A DNA stretch of 64,000 nucleotides from Lewinellaceae bacterium (GTDB lineage: Bacteria > Bacteroidota > Bacteroidia > Chitinophagales > Saprospiraceae). A model generated the notes under the pieces. The model worked only from the letters and a program-made list of their open reading frames with translations, ran no database searches and had not been told where the DNA came from. Position 1 is the stretch's first letter, and every line of letters starts with the position of its first letter. Both the position numbers and the translations under genes were made by a program. Where the stretch lies: positions 2,269 through 66,268 of the forward strand of contig JBEIGB010000001.1 in the NCBI GenBank assembly GCA_040382095.1, written 5' to 3'. Shown here piece after piece: positions 40,949 through 53,500 of this stretch.

Positions 40949-42391
40949 TCACCGAAGGCGTAATGCCGTACCCGTTACAATGGTATCCCCTTCTATACTA
41001 TTCATCGCCCGCAAAGCCCCCACACTAATCCCATACTTCATCGAAATACGGTAAAGGGTATCTCCAGGCTCTACAACGTGGTACACCGCCCCGGCGGCTC
41101 CCGCATTGCGGGAAGGGGGCACAGGTAATGATCCACTGGCTTTCGGAATAATAGGTAGTGGAAGCGGCTCTACGCCACCCTGAGCGGGCAGCGACCTTTC
41201 CTGAACCCCACCCTTCCGAGGGTTCCCTGTAGCTGGATGGAGTAGGGGATCCGGACGGAAAGCCACTTTTGCAACCTCTGAGGGTCTGTTCTGTACCGGC
41301 ACAGAAAAAATTTCCGGCGCAGACTTTACTTTACCGCCCTTGAGCTTGATCCGCTGGCCAGCAGCTACCTCGCTGCCGGCCGCGAGCAGGTTACGCGCAT
41401 ATAATGCCGATAGCTCTATGCAATATCTCCTCGATATATCCACCATCAGCTCATTCGGCCGGACAATATGCCATACCTGCTTTCCCCGGTATCTGCTTTT
41501 CCCGTAATGCGGGTTCCGCCGCCCAAACGAACGCAGTACTACCGCCGGATGATCGCGGCCTTCCTTATACGTCAGTAATAACCCCGAAGCTGGCGCCGCA
41601 CGTAGATGGGCATCAGAAAAAAAACGATCCCGAAGGTCACATAATACATACACCGCAACTGGGGCAAGAGACTTAAATACCTCGCGCTTGGGTACTTCTT
41701 GCACACTACTCCGGTAATAGCTTGGGATTAAAGCCCCGGCCAGTGCCTCAAATCGTGCCTCTACCTGCGAGGGCTGCTGCCCACCGTTACCCGTGACTAC
41801 CGCATGCTCAAAAGACATCCGATCGTACTGCGATAACCCCAAATCCTCAATGATGCGGACCAGCTTTAGATGATACGTTGCATCTGTAGCATATCCGGCT
41901 TTTTTTAATCCGCGCGCCCACCCCTTATAATCCGTTGGATCCAGCTCAAACAAAAAACCGTACCGCTCTTCCTTGAGCGGGTTGCGCAGGAATTCCGAAT
42001 GGGCAATGAAACTCTCTTCAACAGAATTGTAATGCCGGAAACAAGACTTCAACGCTTGACCCTGCCGATCGTACTCATCATCAAATTTATAGTATTGAGG
42101 ACCGTTCCAGGAATCACGGCCCCCACATTTTATGCCAAAATGATTGTTGGCAATTACCGCAAGATCTGTCGTCCCCCAACGTGATTCCAGAATCGCCTGC
42201 CCAAGCTTGATACTGGCAGGAACACCGCGACGCTCCATCTCCCAAATCGCCAGTGCCTTATACCTTTCGACGTATCGCAACTGCTCTTCAATTGGCTGTG
42301 CTTGTACTGCCCTGCAGAACAAAAATACCAGGATAGTCGTAAAAACGAACTTTCGTCTCATGCAGTTCTTAGCTTTTATATCTGTTGCCAA
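40949..42391 (-). CDS. Peptidoglycan hydrolase: N-acetylglucosaminidase (FlgJ-like GH73) domain with two LysM domains
   Basis: GH73 region: ASIKLGQAILESRWGTTDLAVIANNHFGIKC. LysM-like segments: WHIVRPNELMVDISRRYCIELSALYARN and YHVVEPGDTLYRISMKYGISVGALRAMN. Confidence 0.8.
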   Translation of the reverse strand: MATDIKAKNCMRRKFVFTTILVFLFCRAVQAQPIEEQLRYVERYKALAIWEMERRGVPASIKLGQAILESRWGTTDLAVIANNHFGIKCGGRDSWNGPQYYKFDDEYDRQGQALKSCFRHYNSVEESFIAHSEFLRNPLKEERYGFLFELDPTDYKGWARGLKKAGYATDATYHLKLVRIIEDLGLSQYDRMSFEHAVVTGNGGQQPSQVEARFEALAGALIPSYYRSSVQEVPKREVFKSLAPVAVYVLCDLRDRFFSDAHLRAAPASGLLLTYKEGRDHPAVVLRSFGRRNPHYGKSRYRGKQVWHIVRPNELMVDISRRYCIELSALYARNLLAAGSEVAAGQRIKLKGGKVKSAPEIFSVPVQNRPSEVAKVAFRPDPLLHPATGNPRKGGVQERSLPAQGGVEPLPLPIIPKASGSLPVPPSRNAGAAGAVYHVVEPGDTLYRISMKYGISVGALRAMNSIEGDTIVTGTALRLR

Positions 42392-42718
42392 CGCTTATGC
42401 AAGAATTGAACTGCTTCAAAAATAGCCATTTTTTTACTGCGCCGCCTCTTTTTAACCCACATTGCAGGTGGCTAATGGAATTTTAACGGAAATTTTCTAA
42501 AAAGTGCATCCCGCCAATGAATATTACCTCCTGAAAATCTCCCTTTATTTACTGTTTTTGCGGTAAATTCATCCATAAATAGTAAAATCCGCTTATATTG
42601 CAGGCAGCATACTAAAGAAGACGAATAGCTCTATTATAAGCATTGCCGCGACGGAATGACCCACCGATTCTTTCCCTCGCATGTGATTTTTTACCGCTAA
42701 AACAGCAAATTAAAACTA

Positions 42719-42958
42719 ATGGACACCTCGGAACTCGGCCAGATTATTCGTCAACACCGAAAACTTAGCGGCCTCACCCGCATCGAGTGCGCACGCCTCG
42801 CAGGTGTAGGAAAAACCGTCGTTTACGATATCGAACATGGAAAGCCCTCCGTTCAACTGCTTACGCTACTCAAAATCCTCCATGTACTCAATATCCGGAT
42901 CCAACTCTCAAGCCCGGTCATCAATGGTTTTCCTGACGAAAAACCAAAAGAAATATGA
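42719..42958 (+). CDS. XRE-family HTH protein, HipB-like antitoxin candidate
   Basis: Sequence LGQIIRQHRKLSGLTRIECARLAGVGKTVVYDIEHGKPSVQLLTLLKILHVLNI. 79 aa. The stop overlaps the downstream start (ATGA). Confidence 0.8.
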   Translation: MDTSELGQIIRQHRKLSGLTRIECARLAGVGKTVVYDIEHGKPSVQLLTLLKILHVLNIRIQLSSPVINGFPDEKPKEI

Positions 42959-43866
42959 GCCGCTGCCCAATATCTTATCAAATCTGCAGCCCGGAAAAAT
43001 ATAGTGCAGCAGGATTGAGAAAACTCCGCCGGGGACTGACGGCTGTTGCACCGTTCAACAACGACGCCATTCAAGGCCAGCCTCCATCTAAATTCGAAAT
43101 CAACTGGCACGGTAACTGGGCTTTCGGAGATGTTTCGCCCGAGTGTGAAGAAATGAAAATCAACAATAAAAAAAGCAGGTTCATCCTTATTCCGCCCGCA
43201 AAACCCTTCCTCCAAACTTCTGAAAATATCGACCTTAGTACACGCATCGCCCAAAAATGTGAAATCGAAACCGTCTTCCATGGCATGATCTTTAACATAG
43301 ACCAAACCCTCAGCTTCTTTGCCGAAGTACCGGGAATGTCCAGTCCAAAGTCCTCCCAGCTCACAAAATGCGCAGATGCACTCAAATCGCTGAAAAAACC
43401 GCTGAAAGCAGATACTGTTGAAGGAATTGTGGAAATGATTGACAACTACTGCACCTTCCCCGTCATCGAAAAGTACCGCCTCTTTCAAAGAATCCTGTTC
43501 TCCTGGCTCGTCGGATATCAGACTGCCTGCTGGAAAGACTATCTCCTCCTCCAATATCCTCAAAAAACAATCCTGGCCCCTCCTTTATTTTTTGCCAATA
43601 CCCACCTGTTTTTTGGCCGACAGGACCGCGAACTGAACCTCACCATACAGGGTAAAAATTCCGCTTTCGAGGCTAAAGATTTCACTCAGCTTCTTGGACG
43701 TGAAATCCTACAGCTACCTGAAGAACCCATCGCTTACTTCCTGAACTCCATCAAAAACAACTATTCCGATATCCGCCATCTGGTGCTGAACAGCTTCCTG
43801 AGCGAAGAACTCAAAGAACTTTTCCTGGATGGAATCGTAGGTAGGTTCAGCCGGCTTAGGCTTTGA
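42955..43866 (+). CDS. Short HipA-family homologue with apparently degenerate kinase motifs
   Basis: By my recall of family consensus, it aligns with HipA toxins at several points. It has a Cys-containing N-terminus (MSRCPISYQICS) and FILIPPAK. LFSWLVGYQTACWKDYLLLQY sits where LIGNxDxHxKNFS is expected. ILAPPLFFANT sits where LSPAYDLL is expected. ELNLTIQGKNS and NSFLSEELKELF also align. The catalytic D/H/N positions are not conserved. Confidence 0.65.
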   Translation: MSRCPISYQICSPEKYSAAGLRKLRRGLTAVAPFNNDAIQGQPPSKFEINWHGNWAFGDVSPECEEMKINNKKSRFILIPPAKPFLQTSENIDLSTRIAQKCEIETVFHGMIFNIDQTLSFFAEVPGMSSPKSSQLTKCADALKSLKKPLKADTVEGIVEMIDNYCTFPVIEKYRLFQRILFSWLVGYQTACWKDYLLLQYPQKTILAPPLFFANTHLFFGRQDRELNLTIQGKNSAFEAKDFTQLLGREILQLPEEPIAYFLNSIKNNYSDIRHLVLNSFLSEELKELFLDGIVGRFSRLRL

Positions 43867-44008: not shown

Positions 44009-44995
44009 ATGAATGCCCTCTCCGACCCGATCCGTAAATGGCGCGCCCTCTGGAATCCCGAAATGTACCATGGCTGGGGCAAAAAAAATAACTTCTTCGA
44101 GGGCTGGTATTTTAAAATGATCGCACCTTCAAACGAACAGGCGATCGCGGTAATCCCCGGGATTAGCATGGATAAAAATGGCCAAAAACACGCATTCGTC
44201 CAGGTCTTCGACGGTACCCAAAAACAGGCGTTCTATCATGCATTTGATGAAAAAGATTTTTTACCTTCCAATGATAGCTTCGCCCTCCACCTCGGCCAAA
44301 ATTTCTTCTCCCCCGAAAAAATACTCCTCGACTTGCCAGAAATCCAGGGCGAACTCCACTTCCAAAATCAACACACCTGGCCTAAAATGATGGGAGCACC
44401 CGGTATCATGGGTTGGTATGGATTCGTTCCTTTCATGGAGTGCTACCACGGTGTGGTCAGCCTGCACCATACCATTTCCGGAAACCTCAATTTTCGCGGA
44501 AAATCCCTCCCAATGGATAAAGGTATTGGCTACCTCGAGAAAGACTGGGGAACTTCTTTCCCAAGCGCCTGGATATGGATGCAAAGCAATCATTTTCCCC
44601 ACGACCAGCCCGTTTGCCTCATGGTCTCAGTAGCTAAAATCCCATGGCTTACAACGTCTTTCACCGGTTTTATCGCCGGCTTCCTCTTCGAAGGACACCT
44701 CTATAGATTCGCTACCTACACAGGTGCCGTGCTAAAGGCAGAACTGAAAGAAAATACCGTTCATATCGTCCTGCAGGACAAACGACACCGTCTCGAAATT
44801 ACCGGCTACCCCGCCGAAGGTGCTGATTTATTCTCCCCAATGAATGGAGAAATGCGGGGAAAAGTGAACGAAAGCCTTCAATCTCACTTAGATATCCGCT
44901 TTTTTTCTAACGGTAGCTGCCGCTATCAAGGCACTGGTCGGCATGCCGGCCTCGAAATCGCCGGAAACGTTGAAGCAATGATCAAAAGGAACTAA
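44009..44995 (+). CDS. Tocopherol cyclase-like family protein
   Basis: NNFFEGWYFKM near the N-terminus, GYLEKDWGTSFPSAWIWMQSNHF in the middle. 328 aa. Family assignment is from motif memory only. Confidence 0.6.
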   Translation: MNALSDPIRKWRALWNPEMYHGWGKKNNFFEGWYFKMIAPSNEQAIAVIPGISMDKNGQKHAFVQVFDGTQKQAFYHAFDEKDFLPSNDSFALHLGQNFFSPEKILLDLPEIQGELHFQNQHTWPKMMGAPGIMGWYGFVPFMECYHGVVSLHHTISGNLNFRGKSLPMDKGIGYLEKDWGTSFPSAWIWMQSNHFPHDQPVCLMVSVAKIPWLTTSFTGFIAGFLFEGHLYRFATYTGAVLKAELKENTVHIVLQDKRHRLEITGYPAEGADLFSPMNGEMRGKVNESLQSHLDIRFFSNGSCRYQGTGRHAGLEIAGNVEAMIKRN

Positions 44996-45039
44996 TCCCT
45001 GAATAAAATGGTTGTTCTATTTGGATCAGACCCGTATCT

Positions 45040-45462
45040 ATGGGTCCTATATGCCTGAAACAGATGATAGATAAGAAAAAAATCAACCTCGAACGTTATC
45101 GCCGCTTCTTTAGCGAACGGAACTTCTGGAGTGTCATCGGCAGATTCGCGCAACGCCTTGGCATCAAAACCGTATATACGGCCCTGCTCATGTACTACGC
45201 CTATCGCCGCAAGGAAACACCCTTCTGGGCCAAAAATATCGTCATCGGTGTACTCGGTTACCTGCTCACACCACTCGACTTTCTGCCAGACCTCACTCCA
45301 ATTATCGGTTTTACCGACGACATCGGCTTGCTTAGCTTTGGCCTCGTAACGATTGCTTCTTTCATCAATCAGGATGTCCGCAATCAAGCCCGGGAAAAAC
45401 TTACAAAATGGTTCCCAAAATTTGTGGAAAACGATATCCGGGAAGTCGAAGAGAAACTTTAA
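45040..45462 (+). CDS. DUF1232 (YkvA-like) membrane protein
   Basis: VLGYLLTPLDFLPDLTPIIGFTDDIGLL is the DUF1232 signature. An alternative start exists at the ATG at 45064. Confidence 0.75.
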   Translation: MGPICLKQMIDKKKINLERYRRFFSERNFWSVIGRFAQRLGIKTVYTALLMYYAYRRKETPFWAKNIVIGVLGYLLTPLDFLPDLTPIIGFTDDIGLLSFGLVTIASFINQDVRNQAREKLTKWFPKFVENDIREVEEKL

Positions 45463-51927: not shown

Positions 51928-53329
51928 TTAGAAAATATCGTTTGTCGCAAAATCTGGTTTCCGTTGTATCCACCGGCCGCGGGTAAAATCCGGAAAAGCT
52001 ACCGGCTGGCCTCCCAGCGCGATGGATTCTTCTGAAAGTGGAGTGATTGCCATCCAGGTAGCCGCATCATATACATCAATCACCGCAGCACTGTTCGATT
52101 TTGCACATTCCACGAATGCGTTTAACACAAAAAAATCCATACCCCCGTGCCCCGCACCCGTCGCGTCGGCTTCATAGCGTTTCCAAAGCGGGTGGTCATA
52201 GGTTTTCAGATAAGATTCGGCAGCTTCCCATTGATGGCCAGGACTTTTTCCTTCGATATGAATGGATTTATTGATGTCCATCCACAAGCCACGCGACCCT
52301 TGTACGCGAAATCCCAGCGAATAAGGCCGCGGCAGGTTCGTATCGTGAAAAAGGGTAATACTTTCCCCCTCCACCGTCTGTATCATCGTAGTCACTACAT
52401 CACCAAGTCGGAATTTAACTTTCGCATTCGGATGCTCTGGGCCCCCTTTGGGATGCCGGACGATATAATCATGCAAGCCCACGGCCTTCGTGCTCATCGA
52501 AGTAAGATATGCAAAGCGGTTACCCCGGTTGATATTGATAAAGTTGGCCACCGGGCCGATCCCATGGGTTGGATACAGGTCGCCATTGCGGTAAACAGAA
52601 TGCTGGGTGCGCCAACGGGCCTCGCTAAAGCCTTTCTCCCCAAACTCTACCCCACTATCGTATGCAGTAGCCCCATCATTGAACTTTACCCCGCGAAGGT
52701 CATGCTGGTAACCCCCTTCCAAATGTAACAGTTCTCCAAATATACCCTCACGGACCATGTTCAGCACTGCCATGATATCACGACGGTAACAAACGTTTTC
52801 CAGAAAAAATAAATGTGCCCCCCGTTGACTCATGCGTGCGTACCATCTCCCAGCATTCGTCGAGCGAAAATGCCCCGCATACCTCCACTCCCGTATATTT
52901 GCCGGCATTCATTGCCGCCACCGCCATCTCCGTGTGCAATTCCCAGGGCGTCGAAATGATCACCGCGTCAATGTCTTTCTCCGCGATCAGCCGAAGATAA
53001 TCCTTAGGCCCCTGATCAAATACTTTTACCGCTCCGGCAGCTTTTTTCTTGATAATTGCCTGCGTACGGGCAAGCATCTTTGCGTCAATATCGCAAATTG
53101 CCGCCACTTCGCAATCTTTGCGGTTGAGGATCAAATCAACATGGGATTGACCGCGCAACCCAACACCGATAAAACCAACCCGCAGCTTCGAATTTGGATT
53201 AGGCGATTTGTTGACCATCGGCGCCGGTTTATCCCCTGCCAATACAGCGCCCGGCTCCAGGAGCAACCCTGCACCGGTTACAGCTAATGCTTTTTGAAGA
53301 AAGGTTCTTCTGCTGCCTTCTTTTCCCAC
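51928..53329 (-). pseudogene. Gfo/Idh/MocA-fold, GH109-like (NAD-dependent glycosidase/oxidoreductase) gene with Tat signal, interrupted by a +1 frameshift
   Basis: Track ORFs 52778..53329 and 51928..52908 are the two halves. The N-terminal half carries SRRTFLQ, the Rossmann segment LRVGFIGVGLRGQSH and ...[13 protein letters not shown]. The C-terminal half reads [23 protein letters not shown].... Removing one G from the G6 run (plus-strand C6 at 52818-52823) gives the continuous [19 protein letters not shown]. Confidence 0.8.
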
Positions 53330-53500
53330 TTTGTTTGTTTTTTAAAGGAACAATTACTTTCAATTACTATTACTGCTATAACAGTAAAAATAAGTACAAA
53401 AACCCGCAGCAATCAATACCGCAGCCCACCATACTGCTGGCTATCCGAAAAATCGTAGCGGATTTGTACGGGCAAAATAAGAAAAAGGAAGCGAACATTT

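Follow-up and report, generated by a model that had tools for sequence, protein, structure and literature searches.

Evidence for a selectively retained HipT pseudokinase coupled to HipB in a Saprospiraceae genus

Introduction

What remains of a toxin–antitoxin (TA) module when the kinase fold of its toxin is kept and all catalytic motifs are lost? The question was raised by a two-gene locus in a 64,000-nucleotide stretch of DNA (hereafter, the window) from contig JBEIGB010000001.1 of the Lewinellaceae bacterium assembly GCA_040382095.1, which belongs to the family Saprospiraceae. The locus comprises hipB, which encodes a 79-aa helix-turn-helix (HTH) protein, and an overlapping open reading frame (ORF) of 303 aa, here denoted hipT*. 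An earlier note, made from the letters of the window, had described the pair as a HipB-like gene coupled to a short HipA homologue with degenerate catalytic motifs. The conservation, structure, inheritance and regulatory DNA of the pair were explored in the present analysis. The results point with high confidence to a selectively retained, catalytically dead HipT derivative that is coupled to HipB and that arose from a HipBST system by loss of hipS. Such a case is relevant to the long-standing question of the purpose that TA modules serve on chromosomes.

Results

Loss of the catalytic apparatus

A search of approximately 5.8 billion proteins returned 18 relatives of the 303-aa protein, all of them 293–316 aa in length. 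Thirteen of these relatives were 38–100% identical to the query and had the same aberrant motifs as the window protein (hereafter, the dead clade), whereas the other five, which were 27–30% identical, had intact SIQGVQPK, YILKPQ, RFDR, EDFAQL, GNxDMHLKNFS and SPAYDLxNT motifs. Active Hip kinases are defined by four kinase motifs, which all families described are reported to keep (PMC8262856). The motifs of HipT* were mapped via column-by-column alignment against motif-intact environmental relatives, and the residue numbers of the Legionella pneumophila protein, HipT(Lp), were taken from HMMER alignments and published papers. The Gly-rich loop SIQGVQPK was replaced by EINWHGNW (residues 48–55) after a 5-residue deletion, with E48 in place of the autophosphorylated Ser, W51 in place of the loop Gly and W55 in place of the loop Lys (K61 of HipT(Lp)). 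The ATP lysine of YILKPQ (K85) was I79, and this position was hydrophobic in all members of the dead clade. The activation-loop motif RFDR was changed to VPGM (125–128), and the hinge EDFAQL was changed to KCADAL (138–143). In the catalytic loop, GNxDxHxKNFS was replaced by GYQTACWKDYL (187–197), in which the catalytic Asp (D197), His (H199) and Asn (N202) were T190, C192 and D195, respectively. SPAYDLxNT was replaced by APPLFFANT (208–216), with F212 at the position of the Mg-binding Asp (D219).

All seven key positions that were checked (the loop Gly, K61, K85, D197, H199, N202 and D219) were replaced, and the losses of the lysine and of the Mg-binding Asp were common to all clade members. 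In HipT(Lp), the substitutions H199A, D197Q and D219Q abolish toxicity or activity, and substitutions in the E. coli HipT equivalent to K61, K85, H199, N202 and D219 abolish toxicity or activity as well (PMC9325769, PMC10653801). Judged from its sequence, HipT* cannot be a conventional kinase. The replacement of the catalytic loop and of the Mg-binding motif (LAPPLFFAN at the position of PAYDLL) had already been read by eye in the earlier note, and the alignment with motif-intact relatives gave the same result; no intact catalytic Asp or Lys was placed in the ORF by profile alignment. The note had erred in one assignment: it took IQGQPPSKF (39–47) for the ATP loop, and the alignment puts EINWHGNW there, approximately 9 residues later.

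Conservation was compared between 14 members of the dead clade and 15 motif-intact relatives. The 33 positions that were conserved in the active group only covered the four motif regions. Another 25 positions were conserved in both groups and made up the core of the fold together with the mini-domain at the N-terminus (M1, C4, Y16, G20, L21 and L28). The remaining 16 were conserved in the dead clade only; they included W51, P81 and W184, and many of them clustered in the C-terminal helices at 270–299 (Y270, R274, L286, D292, V295 and S299). Across the subclades, the position of the catalytic Asp was occupied by T, S or I, that of the His by C, S, H, Q or D, and that of the Mg-binding Asp by F, L or Y, and further former active-site positions were K or S and D, N or C. 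Because the former catalytic positions vary between subclades, no replacement active site is conserved.

W51 (window 43105–43107), which stands where active kinases have the Gly of the Gly-rich loop, was a Trp in every member of the clade. In the E. coli HipBST system, HipT is inhibited by HipS, a Trp of which enters the cavity that this loop forms (PMC10627512). By analogy, it is conceivable that W51 serves as an intramolecular mimic of the HipS Trp plug.

Relationship of the 303-aa protein to HipT

The Pfam HipA_C model matched the 303-aa protein at 13.3 bits, which was below the gathering cut-off of 30.5 bits, and only weak matches to this model were obtained in 13 of the 14 clade members. 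An NCBIfam scan of the protein gave no match. When a profile of all 18 relatives was compared with the PDB, HipT(Lp) of the Legionella pneumophila HipBST system was matched over the whole length (E 1e-106), and the second-closest solved relative was HipT of E. coli O127 (E 1e-24), whereas full-length HipA structures were matched at an E-value of approximately 1e-3 and over residues 174–281 only. A profile of the dead clade alone also matched HipT(Lp) over the full length, collinear from residue 1 (E 9e-58). The AlphaFold2 model of the protein had a mean predicted local distance difference test score (pLDDT) of 88 and a predicted template modelling score (pTM) of 0.89, and it was superposed via Foldseek on the HipT(Lp) structures 7vkc and 7wcf with a template modelling score (TM) of 0.90. 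The sole low-confidence part of the model was the former activation-loop and hinge segment (pLDDT 52–61), which was rich in insertions and deletions.

The 303-aa protein is a HipT homologue and not a truncated HipA, because the profile match to HipT(Lp) extends over the full length and the TM is 0.90. The homology to the HipA family along the length of the ORF and the shortfall of approximately 100 aa, both proposed in the earlier note, were retained; its choice of parent was not, since this parent is the short HipT of HipBST rather than full-length HipA. The shortfall is explained by the fact that N-subdomain 1 of HipA is a separate protein, HipS, in HipBST systems (PMC8262856).

The close relatives P0002 and P0004 are named "serine/threonine-protein kinase HipA" in the Joint Genome Institute (JGI) annotation. 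This name cannot hold because all catalytic motifs are lost, and it is flagged here as an annotation error in which disarmed relatives are called HipA kinases.

Retention and selection

The dead clade consisted of Saprospiraceae metagenome-assembled genomes, several of which carry the NCBI label Haliscomenobacter sp. Each of the seven genomes of the window's GTDB genus had one intact, stop-free copy of hipT*, and the best four hits in 150 other genera of the family, those that were read, were motif-intact kinases. The order of genes in the clade was constant, namely, a divergent LysM/glucosaminidase gene, hipB, hipT*, an optional tocopherol-cyclase-like gene, a DUF1232 gene and atpC/atpD, and the synteny of the hipB–hipT* locus was maintained down to 39% protein identity. 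The ratio of nonsynonymous to synonymous substitution rates (dN/dS) was calculated by the Nei–Gojobori method for pairs with unsaturated dS. The values were 0.126, 0.123, 0.121 and 0.079 for hipT*, 0.05–0.15 for hipB and approximately 0.06 for active hipT. HipT* diverged at about the rate of the neighbouring glucosaminidase (identities of 40–79% versus 46–75%) and evolved faster than HipB, DUF1232 or AtpD. The GC content of hipT* equalled that of the window, and the base composition was therefore native. In the maximum-likelihood tree, the clade was monophyletic, with a Shimodaira–Hasegawa-like approximate likelihood ratio test (SH-aLRT) support of 100 and a stem of 1.06 changes per site.

In one genus of Saprospiraceae, hipB and hipT* belong to the core genome as syntenic genes in a single copy, and they are under purifying selection. 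HipT* combines the features of a pseudokinase, i.e., a kinase fold that is kept, catalytic residues that are lost and purifying selection. No frameshifts or stops were found in orthologues and dN/dS was 0.08–0.15, in agreement with the earlier suggestion of a retained rather than decaying HipA derivative. A decaying pseudogene was rejected on account of the intact frames in 7/7 genomes and the low dN/dS.

Loss of hipS and other degenerate lineages

HipB was matched by the NCBIfam model TIGR03070 (couple_hipB/Y4mF antitoxin) with an E-value of 3.5e-18 and by Pfam HTH_3 with an E-value of 3.6e-9. Its identity across the dead clade was 58–91%, and hipB lay upstream of the dead kinase gene in 8/8 other clade loci that were read. 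The hipB stop codon TGA (42956–42958) was overlapped by the hipT* start codon ATG (42955), the two genes sharing the 4 nt ATGA, and the ORF coordinates and the overlap were as described earlier. All 12 motif-intact relatives that were read had the tricistronic order hipB (74–98 aa), hipS (104–120 aa) and hipT (308–321 aa). These relatives came from Saprospiraceae, Lewinella, Simkania and Myxococcales; their genes overlapped, and their genomic contexts were unrelated. No hipS is present in the window locus because the overlap of hipB and hipT* leaves no space for it. A HipS profile search of the 97.7%-complete genome was negative (best E 0.29, inside a 709-aa frame), and a genome search found no other Hip kinase in the window's genome. 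An active partner kinase or a hipS hidden elsewhere in the genome was rejected on these negative searches.

A second Hip kinase of approximately 355 aa, from another subfamily, was seen in two genomes of the genus (L030:1179–2246 in genome G052 and G153:C10:2118–2876). Its catalytic and Mg-loop motifs were intact, its Gly-rich loop was TGVQAK, and it had an N-terminal C-x2-C...H-x2-C knuckle. The window's genome was without this kinase.

An exhaustive search of 1.84 billion representatives gave 95 full-length relatives, among which 59 kept the seven key positions and 36 had lost at least one, although these proportions are biased because the search query was itself a dead protein. The window clade accounted for 14 of the 36. 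Seven other degenerate lineages were looked up, and six (P0021, P0029, P0030, P0032, P0045 and P0054) had an HTH gene with a HipT-like gene and no hipS. The remaining lineage, P0020, had lost the Mg-binding Asp and the catalytic-loop Asn only, and hipS was still present. Across the loci that were read, the lack of hipS accompanied the loss of the catalytic motifs. The degenerate proteins clustered together in the tree with weak support (SH-aLRT 88); these lineages may have had a single origin or several, possibly with long-branch attraction.

The P0020 locus (L034:1951–3436) was tripartite, hipB–hipS–hipT, with three phased operators, and the Mg-binding Asp was replaced by Gly and the catalytic-loop Asn by Lys. 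It is possibly an intermediate.

Predicted palindromic operators upstream of hipB

A 15-bp inverted repeat matching at 14/15 positions had been noticed in front of hipB and proposed as an operator pair. Such a pair occurred in 0/500 shuffles of the intergenic region, and the repeat is thus real; its arms are, however, longer, i.e., 24 nt (42544–42567 and 42690–42713), with 88% complementarity and 122 nt between them. Moreover, each of the two arms contains a palindrome of its own, 20 bp long, with the pattern TTTACYG-N6-CRGTAAA. The proposal of operators was kept, with the correction that O1 and O2 (Table 1) are two copies of one predicted palindromic operator rather than the halves of a single operator. 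O2 ended 9 nt before the hipB ATG and started 142 bp after O1.

The palindrome was found upstream of hipB in every dead-clade locus, and O2 was conserved at −29/−30 in the orthologues. Active hipBST loci from Saprospiraceae, Simkania and Myxococcales also had the palindrome upstream of hipB, usually at approximately −92 and −20, and three copies at a spacing of 69–72 bp were present in L034 and L037. In Legionella, three 18-nt operators separated by 53-bp gaps (71-bp period) are bound by HipB in electrophoretic mobility shift assays (PMC10653801). The window spacing of 142 bp is twice this 71-bp HipBST operator period, and the middle operator between O1 and O2 has decayed. When the upstream regions of four orthologous loci were aligned, three islands stood out as conserved, namely, O1, O2 and a block approximately 25 nt downstream of O1. 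A scan of this block (Table 1) for the sigma-70 consensus gave no match, which is uninformative for this phylum.

A long-range RNA or DNA stem between the repeat arms was rejected as the principal interpretation. According to a hand count, the complementarity of the central 6 nt of O1 and O2 was 5/6 in the window and dropped to 3/6 in L007 and L001. A protein operator is favoured over such a stem because the half-sites are conserved and the complementarity of the central spacer is not. The HipBA-type operator TATCC-N8-GGATA was likewise considered and was absent upstream of hipB.

Neighbouring genes

The positions of the two genes, their neighbours and the operator-like elements are given in Table 1. 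Pfam Glucosaminidase and LysM domains were matched in the orthologous loci of the divergent gene, and the divergent arrangement of this gene and hipB was kept in every clade locus. A scan of the gap between 43866 and 44009 found no terminator-like site, and the gap between hipT* and the downstream gene was just 19 nt in L001. The downstream genes (44009–45462) are possibly co-transcribed with hipB–hipT*. The tocopherol-cyclase-like gene lay 3' of hipT* in the window, L001, L006, L007, L008 and L009. It was missing from the subclade of L003, L010 and L011, in which the DUF1232 gene directly followed hipT*.

Table 1. Coordinates of genes and predicted regulatory elements at and near the hipB–hipT* locus (positions in the window)
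Feature	Position	Strand	Description
hipB	42719-42958	+	79-aa HTH protein of Cro/C1 type, as in HipBST systems (Y4mF/couple_hipB)
hipT*	42955-43866	+	303-aa protein with the kinase fold of HipT(Lp) and none of its catalytic motifs (pseudokinase)
O1	42548-42567	.	distal predicted HipB operator, TTTACTG-TTTTTG-CGGTAAA; exact pattern match; 27.7 bits
O2	42690-42709	.	proximal predicted HipB operator, TTTACCG-CTAAAA-CAGCAAA; one mismatch; 28.1 bits, top site of the genome
Conserved block	42589-42603	+	CCGCTTATATTGCAG; ~25 nt downstream of O1; candidate promoter -7-like element
LysM/glucosaminidase gene	40949-42391	-	divergent; intergenic region with operators common to this gene and hipB
Tocopherol-cyclase-like gene	44009-44995	+	downstream of hipT*, same direction
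DUF1232 gene	45040-45462	+	downstream of hipT*, same direction
Operator-like palindrome	53369-53388	.	ATTACTGCTATAACAGTAAA; intergenic; 27.9 bits

Further operator-like sites

The genome was scanned with a symmetrised position weight matrix (PWM) built from 12 clade operators, and the reversed genome, in which the maximum was 22.9 bits, served as the control. Four sites exceeded this maximum, namely, O2, the site at 53369–53388, O1 and C2:55893 (24.2 bits), and both O1 and O2 were among the top three sites of the genome. The 53369 site was located 40 nt upstream of a GH109/Gfo-Idh-MocA-like gene (52778–53329, minus strand). In the two closest genomes of the genus, G154 and G155, sites of 23.3 and 25.6 bits were found at the opposite end of the GH109-like gene; these sites (L039:455–474 and L040:2905–2924, respectively) lay between its stop codon and the start of an NTP-transferase (MurU-like) gene. 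No such site was found at the GH109-like gene in the four more distant genomes G151, G152, G153 and G052.

HipB targets outside its own locus are possible in one subclade; they are not established, because the strong sites are limited to this subclade and their positions differ. The C2:55893–55912 site (ATTACCGCAAAAGCGGCAAA) was located at the 3' end of a 240-aa ORF and approximately 230 nt upstream of a 418-aa ORF (C2:56140). Among the PWM hits of at least 18 bits not belonging to hipB, 5/13 were on contig C1, which makes up 3.5% of the 4.0-Mb genome. The sites on C1 (window coordinates 9711, 36448, 49442, 53369, 54959 and 57776) were mostly inside coding regions. Within 60 kb on either side of hipBT* in G151 and G152, nothing above 20 bits was found except the hipB operators. 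A general local regulon around the locus was rejected, since the C1 hits were mostly coding and no clustering was seen in G151 and G152; it was kept as a reading of low probability.

Discussion

The locus is very probably a degenerate descendant of a tripartite hipB–hipS–hipT module of the Legionella HipBST type. The kinase probably died first, whereupon hipS would have had nothing to neutralise and would have been lost; alternatively, hipS may have been lost first, followed by selection for disarming mutations. The toxin would have been domesticated into a regulatory subunit. In Legionella, HipB(Lp) binds phased 18-nt operators, and HipT(Lp) binds HipB without HipS and supershifts the HipB–DNA complex (PMC10653801). 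In E. coli, hipBT or hipBST expressed at a low level suffices to lower transcription, an effect for which hipB alone must be highly expressed, and basic residues conserved in HipT lie close to the backbone of the modelled DNA (PMC10627512). The partnering of HipB is proposed as the surviving function of HipT* because it is the sole activity of HipT that needs neither catalysis nor HipS. A HipB dimer would bind O1 and O2, and HipT* would join HipB as a scaffold or co-repressor subunit without catalytic activity. The resulting complex would autoregulate hipB–hipT*, with its own promoter as the minimum target, and would probably also affect the divergent LysM-glucosaminidase gene, the downstream co-directional genes, or both. 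This full statement, in which a domesticated HipT* partners HipB on DNA, is judged probable, and it is held less firmly than the retention of a dead HipT derivative as such.

Several points weigh against this mechanism. We infer the HipB–HipT* interaction by analogy with relatives that are only 24–30% identical. A purely self-regulating repressor would give no evident reason why the pair was kept for so long, and little speaks for targets elsewhere; the extra site at 53369 was not positionally conserved in G154 and G155 and was absent from the other four genomes of the genus. The palindrome TTTACYG-N6-CRGTAAA was not found upstream of the HTH gene in the dead lineages L031, L035 and L036 at the threshold used, and the HipB proteins of these lineages may differ in DNA specificity. 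Furthermore, HipT* is fast-evolving, with 40% identity within the genus compared with 91% for AtpD, which would also fit an arms-race function. A wider reading is doubtful at present: the pair might be a member of an unrecognised, recurrent two-gene "HipBT*" class, in which a Hip kinase toxin was turned into a partner of HipB without catalysis, and which in this genus was exapted to control genes for the turnover of cell wall and amino sugars. The candidate regulated genes would then be the LysM-glucosaminidase gene, whose intergenic region holds the operators in every genome of the genus, and, in the window's subclade, the GH109-like/NTP-transferase/APH-kinase cluster with its operator-grade palindromes.

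The fast evolution of HipT* bears on two of the rival explanations. The pair might still be a two-component TA system, in which HipT* is toxic without catalysis (e.g., by stoichiometric sequestration of the ancestral substrate, which for E. coli HipT is an aminoacyl-tRNA synthetase) and HipB is the antitoxin as in HipBA. Features typical of type II TA modules are present, namely, the order of the genes, their 4-nt overlap and operators of the autoregulatory kind, and the Legionella HipT binds directly to HipB (PMC10653801). However, HipB does not neutralise HipT in either characterised HipBST system, in which toxicity is strictly kinase-dependent (PMC9325769, PMC10653801). The substrate-facing motifs, including the activation loop, are lost, and this region is the low-confidence, indel-rich one. 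The vertical, syntenic, single-copy inheritance (7/7) and the native GC content are unlike mobile TA modules, and the active relatives sit in unrelated contexts; a non-catalytic toxin is thus unlikely. Rapid divergence would also suit a defence decoy or guard that mimics an active HipT and so titrates factors of phages or mobile elements, or a HipB that silences incoming hipBST modules with the same operator. The operator is common to active hipBST modules in the family and beyond, which makes cross-repression physically plausible, and two genomes of the genus had another, active Hip kinase. Membership in a defence system was, nevertheless, rejected, as neither HipT* nor its neighbouring genes had a PADLOC match; the locus lies among housekeeping genes with no defence island, and no active module of the HipT(Lp) type was found in the genomes of the genus. 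We regard a decoy or guard as very unlikely.

Some pseudokinases have proved to be AMPylases or sensors. HipT* might similarly bind a new ligand or catalyse a new reaction in the former kinase cleft, so that the DNA binding of HipB responds to a ligand. The model shows an intact fold at high confidence, and among the 16 clade-specific positions are W51, in what was the Gly-rich loop, and W184, beside the former catalytic loop. Against this, the former active-site positions vary among subclades, the Gly-rich loop is 5 residues shorter, the lysine position is hydrophobic throughout and the hinge EDFAQL is lost, which leaves such an activity quite unlikely. Finally, the low HipA_C score and the JGI name of the close relatives might be taken as signs of decay or of an active kinase with unrecognised motifs. 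Decay conflicts with intact frames in all relatives, dN/dS of 0.08–0.15 and retention down to 39% identity, whereas an active kinase conflicts with the loss of the seven key positions and of the Gly-rich loop, many equivalents of which are essential in relatives (PMC9325769, PMC10653801). Both are scarcely credible.

The reading of hipB–hipT* as a retained, disarmed HipBST remnant would make the locus a clean, datable case of TA domestication, in which the antitoxin was lost, the toxin was disarmed yet selected, and HipB and its operators were left untouched. At least six further metagenomic lineages have the same two-gene layout. HipT* would, in addition, be a natural separation-of-function variant for the role of HipT on DNA besides phosphorylation. 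Full-text searches of the literature, for HipA with pseudokinase and for TA toxins that are inactive or domesticated, did not bring up any dead branch of Hip kinases.

Comparison with known systems

The closest solved relative is the Legionella pneumophila HipBST system (Lpg2368-2370; PDB 7vkb, 7vkc, 7wcf, 8ezr and 8ezs), which has the same kinase fold, the same type of HipB and phased palindromic operators with a 71-bp period. Unlike that system, the window locus is without hipS, all catalytic motifs of its HipT are lost, and its operators are two at a distance of 142 bp rather than three at 71 bp. Moreover, the window pair consists of vertically inherited, syntenic chromosomal core genes of one genus. 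In the E. coli O127:H6 HipBST system (PDB 7ab3-7ab5; PMC10627512), HipB is the DNA-binding subunit as well. HipT of this system is approximately 15% identical to the window protein in the structural alignment and, unlike the latter, is an active kinase that targets tryptophanyl-tRNA synthetase (TrpRS) and is neutralised by HipS.

The two-gene layout of hipB followed by the kinase gene resembles HipBA of E. coli K-12 and that of Shewanella oneidensis, in which HipA co-represses with HipB on operator DNA, yet is catalytically active. HipA has approximately 440 aa with N-subdomain 1 and acts at operators of the form TATCC-N8-GGATA, whereas the window locus, with its 303-aa protein, has neither feature; the locus therefore differs from HipBA in both size and operator. 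The metagenomic degenerate HipT-like proteins (P0021, P0029, P0030, P0032, P0045, P0054 and others) belong to the same HipT(Lp) subfamily and have the same bicistronic layout without hipS. They are 24–30% identical to the window protein and occur in other contexts; the extent to which key residues are lost varies among them, and some keep the catalytic Asp. The literature search found nothing on these proteins. As for the Hip kinases in general, HipT* shares the HipT homology and fold and has none of the four motifs, nor does it reach the HipA_C gathering score. With HipBST, the locus shares the hipB-first order and the upstream palindromes and differs by the missing hipS. In sum, the locus resembles the DNA-binding half of a HipBST system from which the toxin–antitoxin half has been removed.

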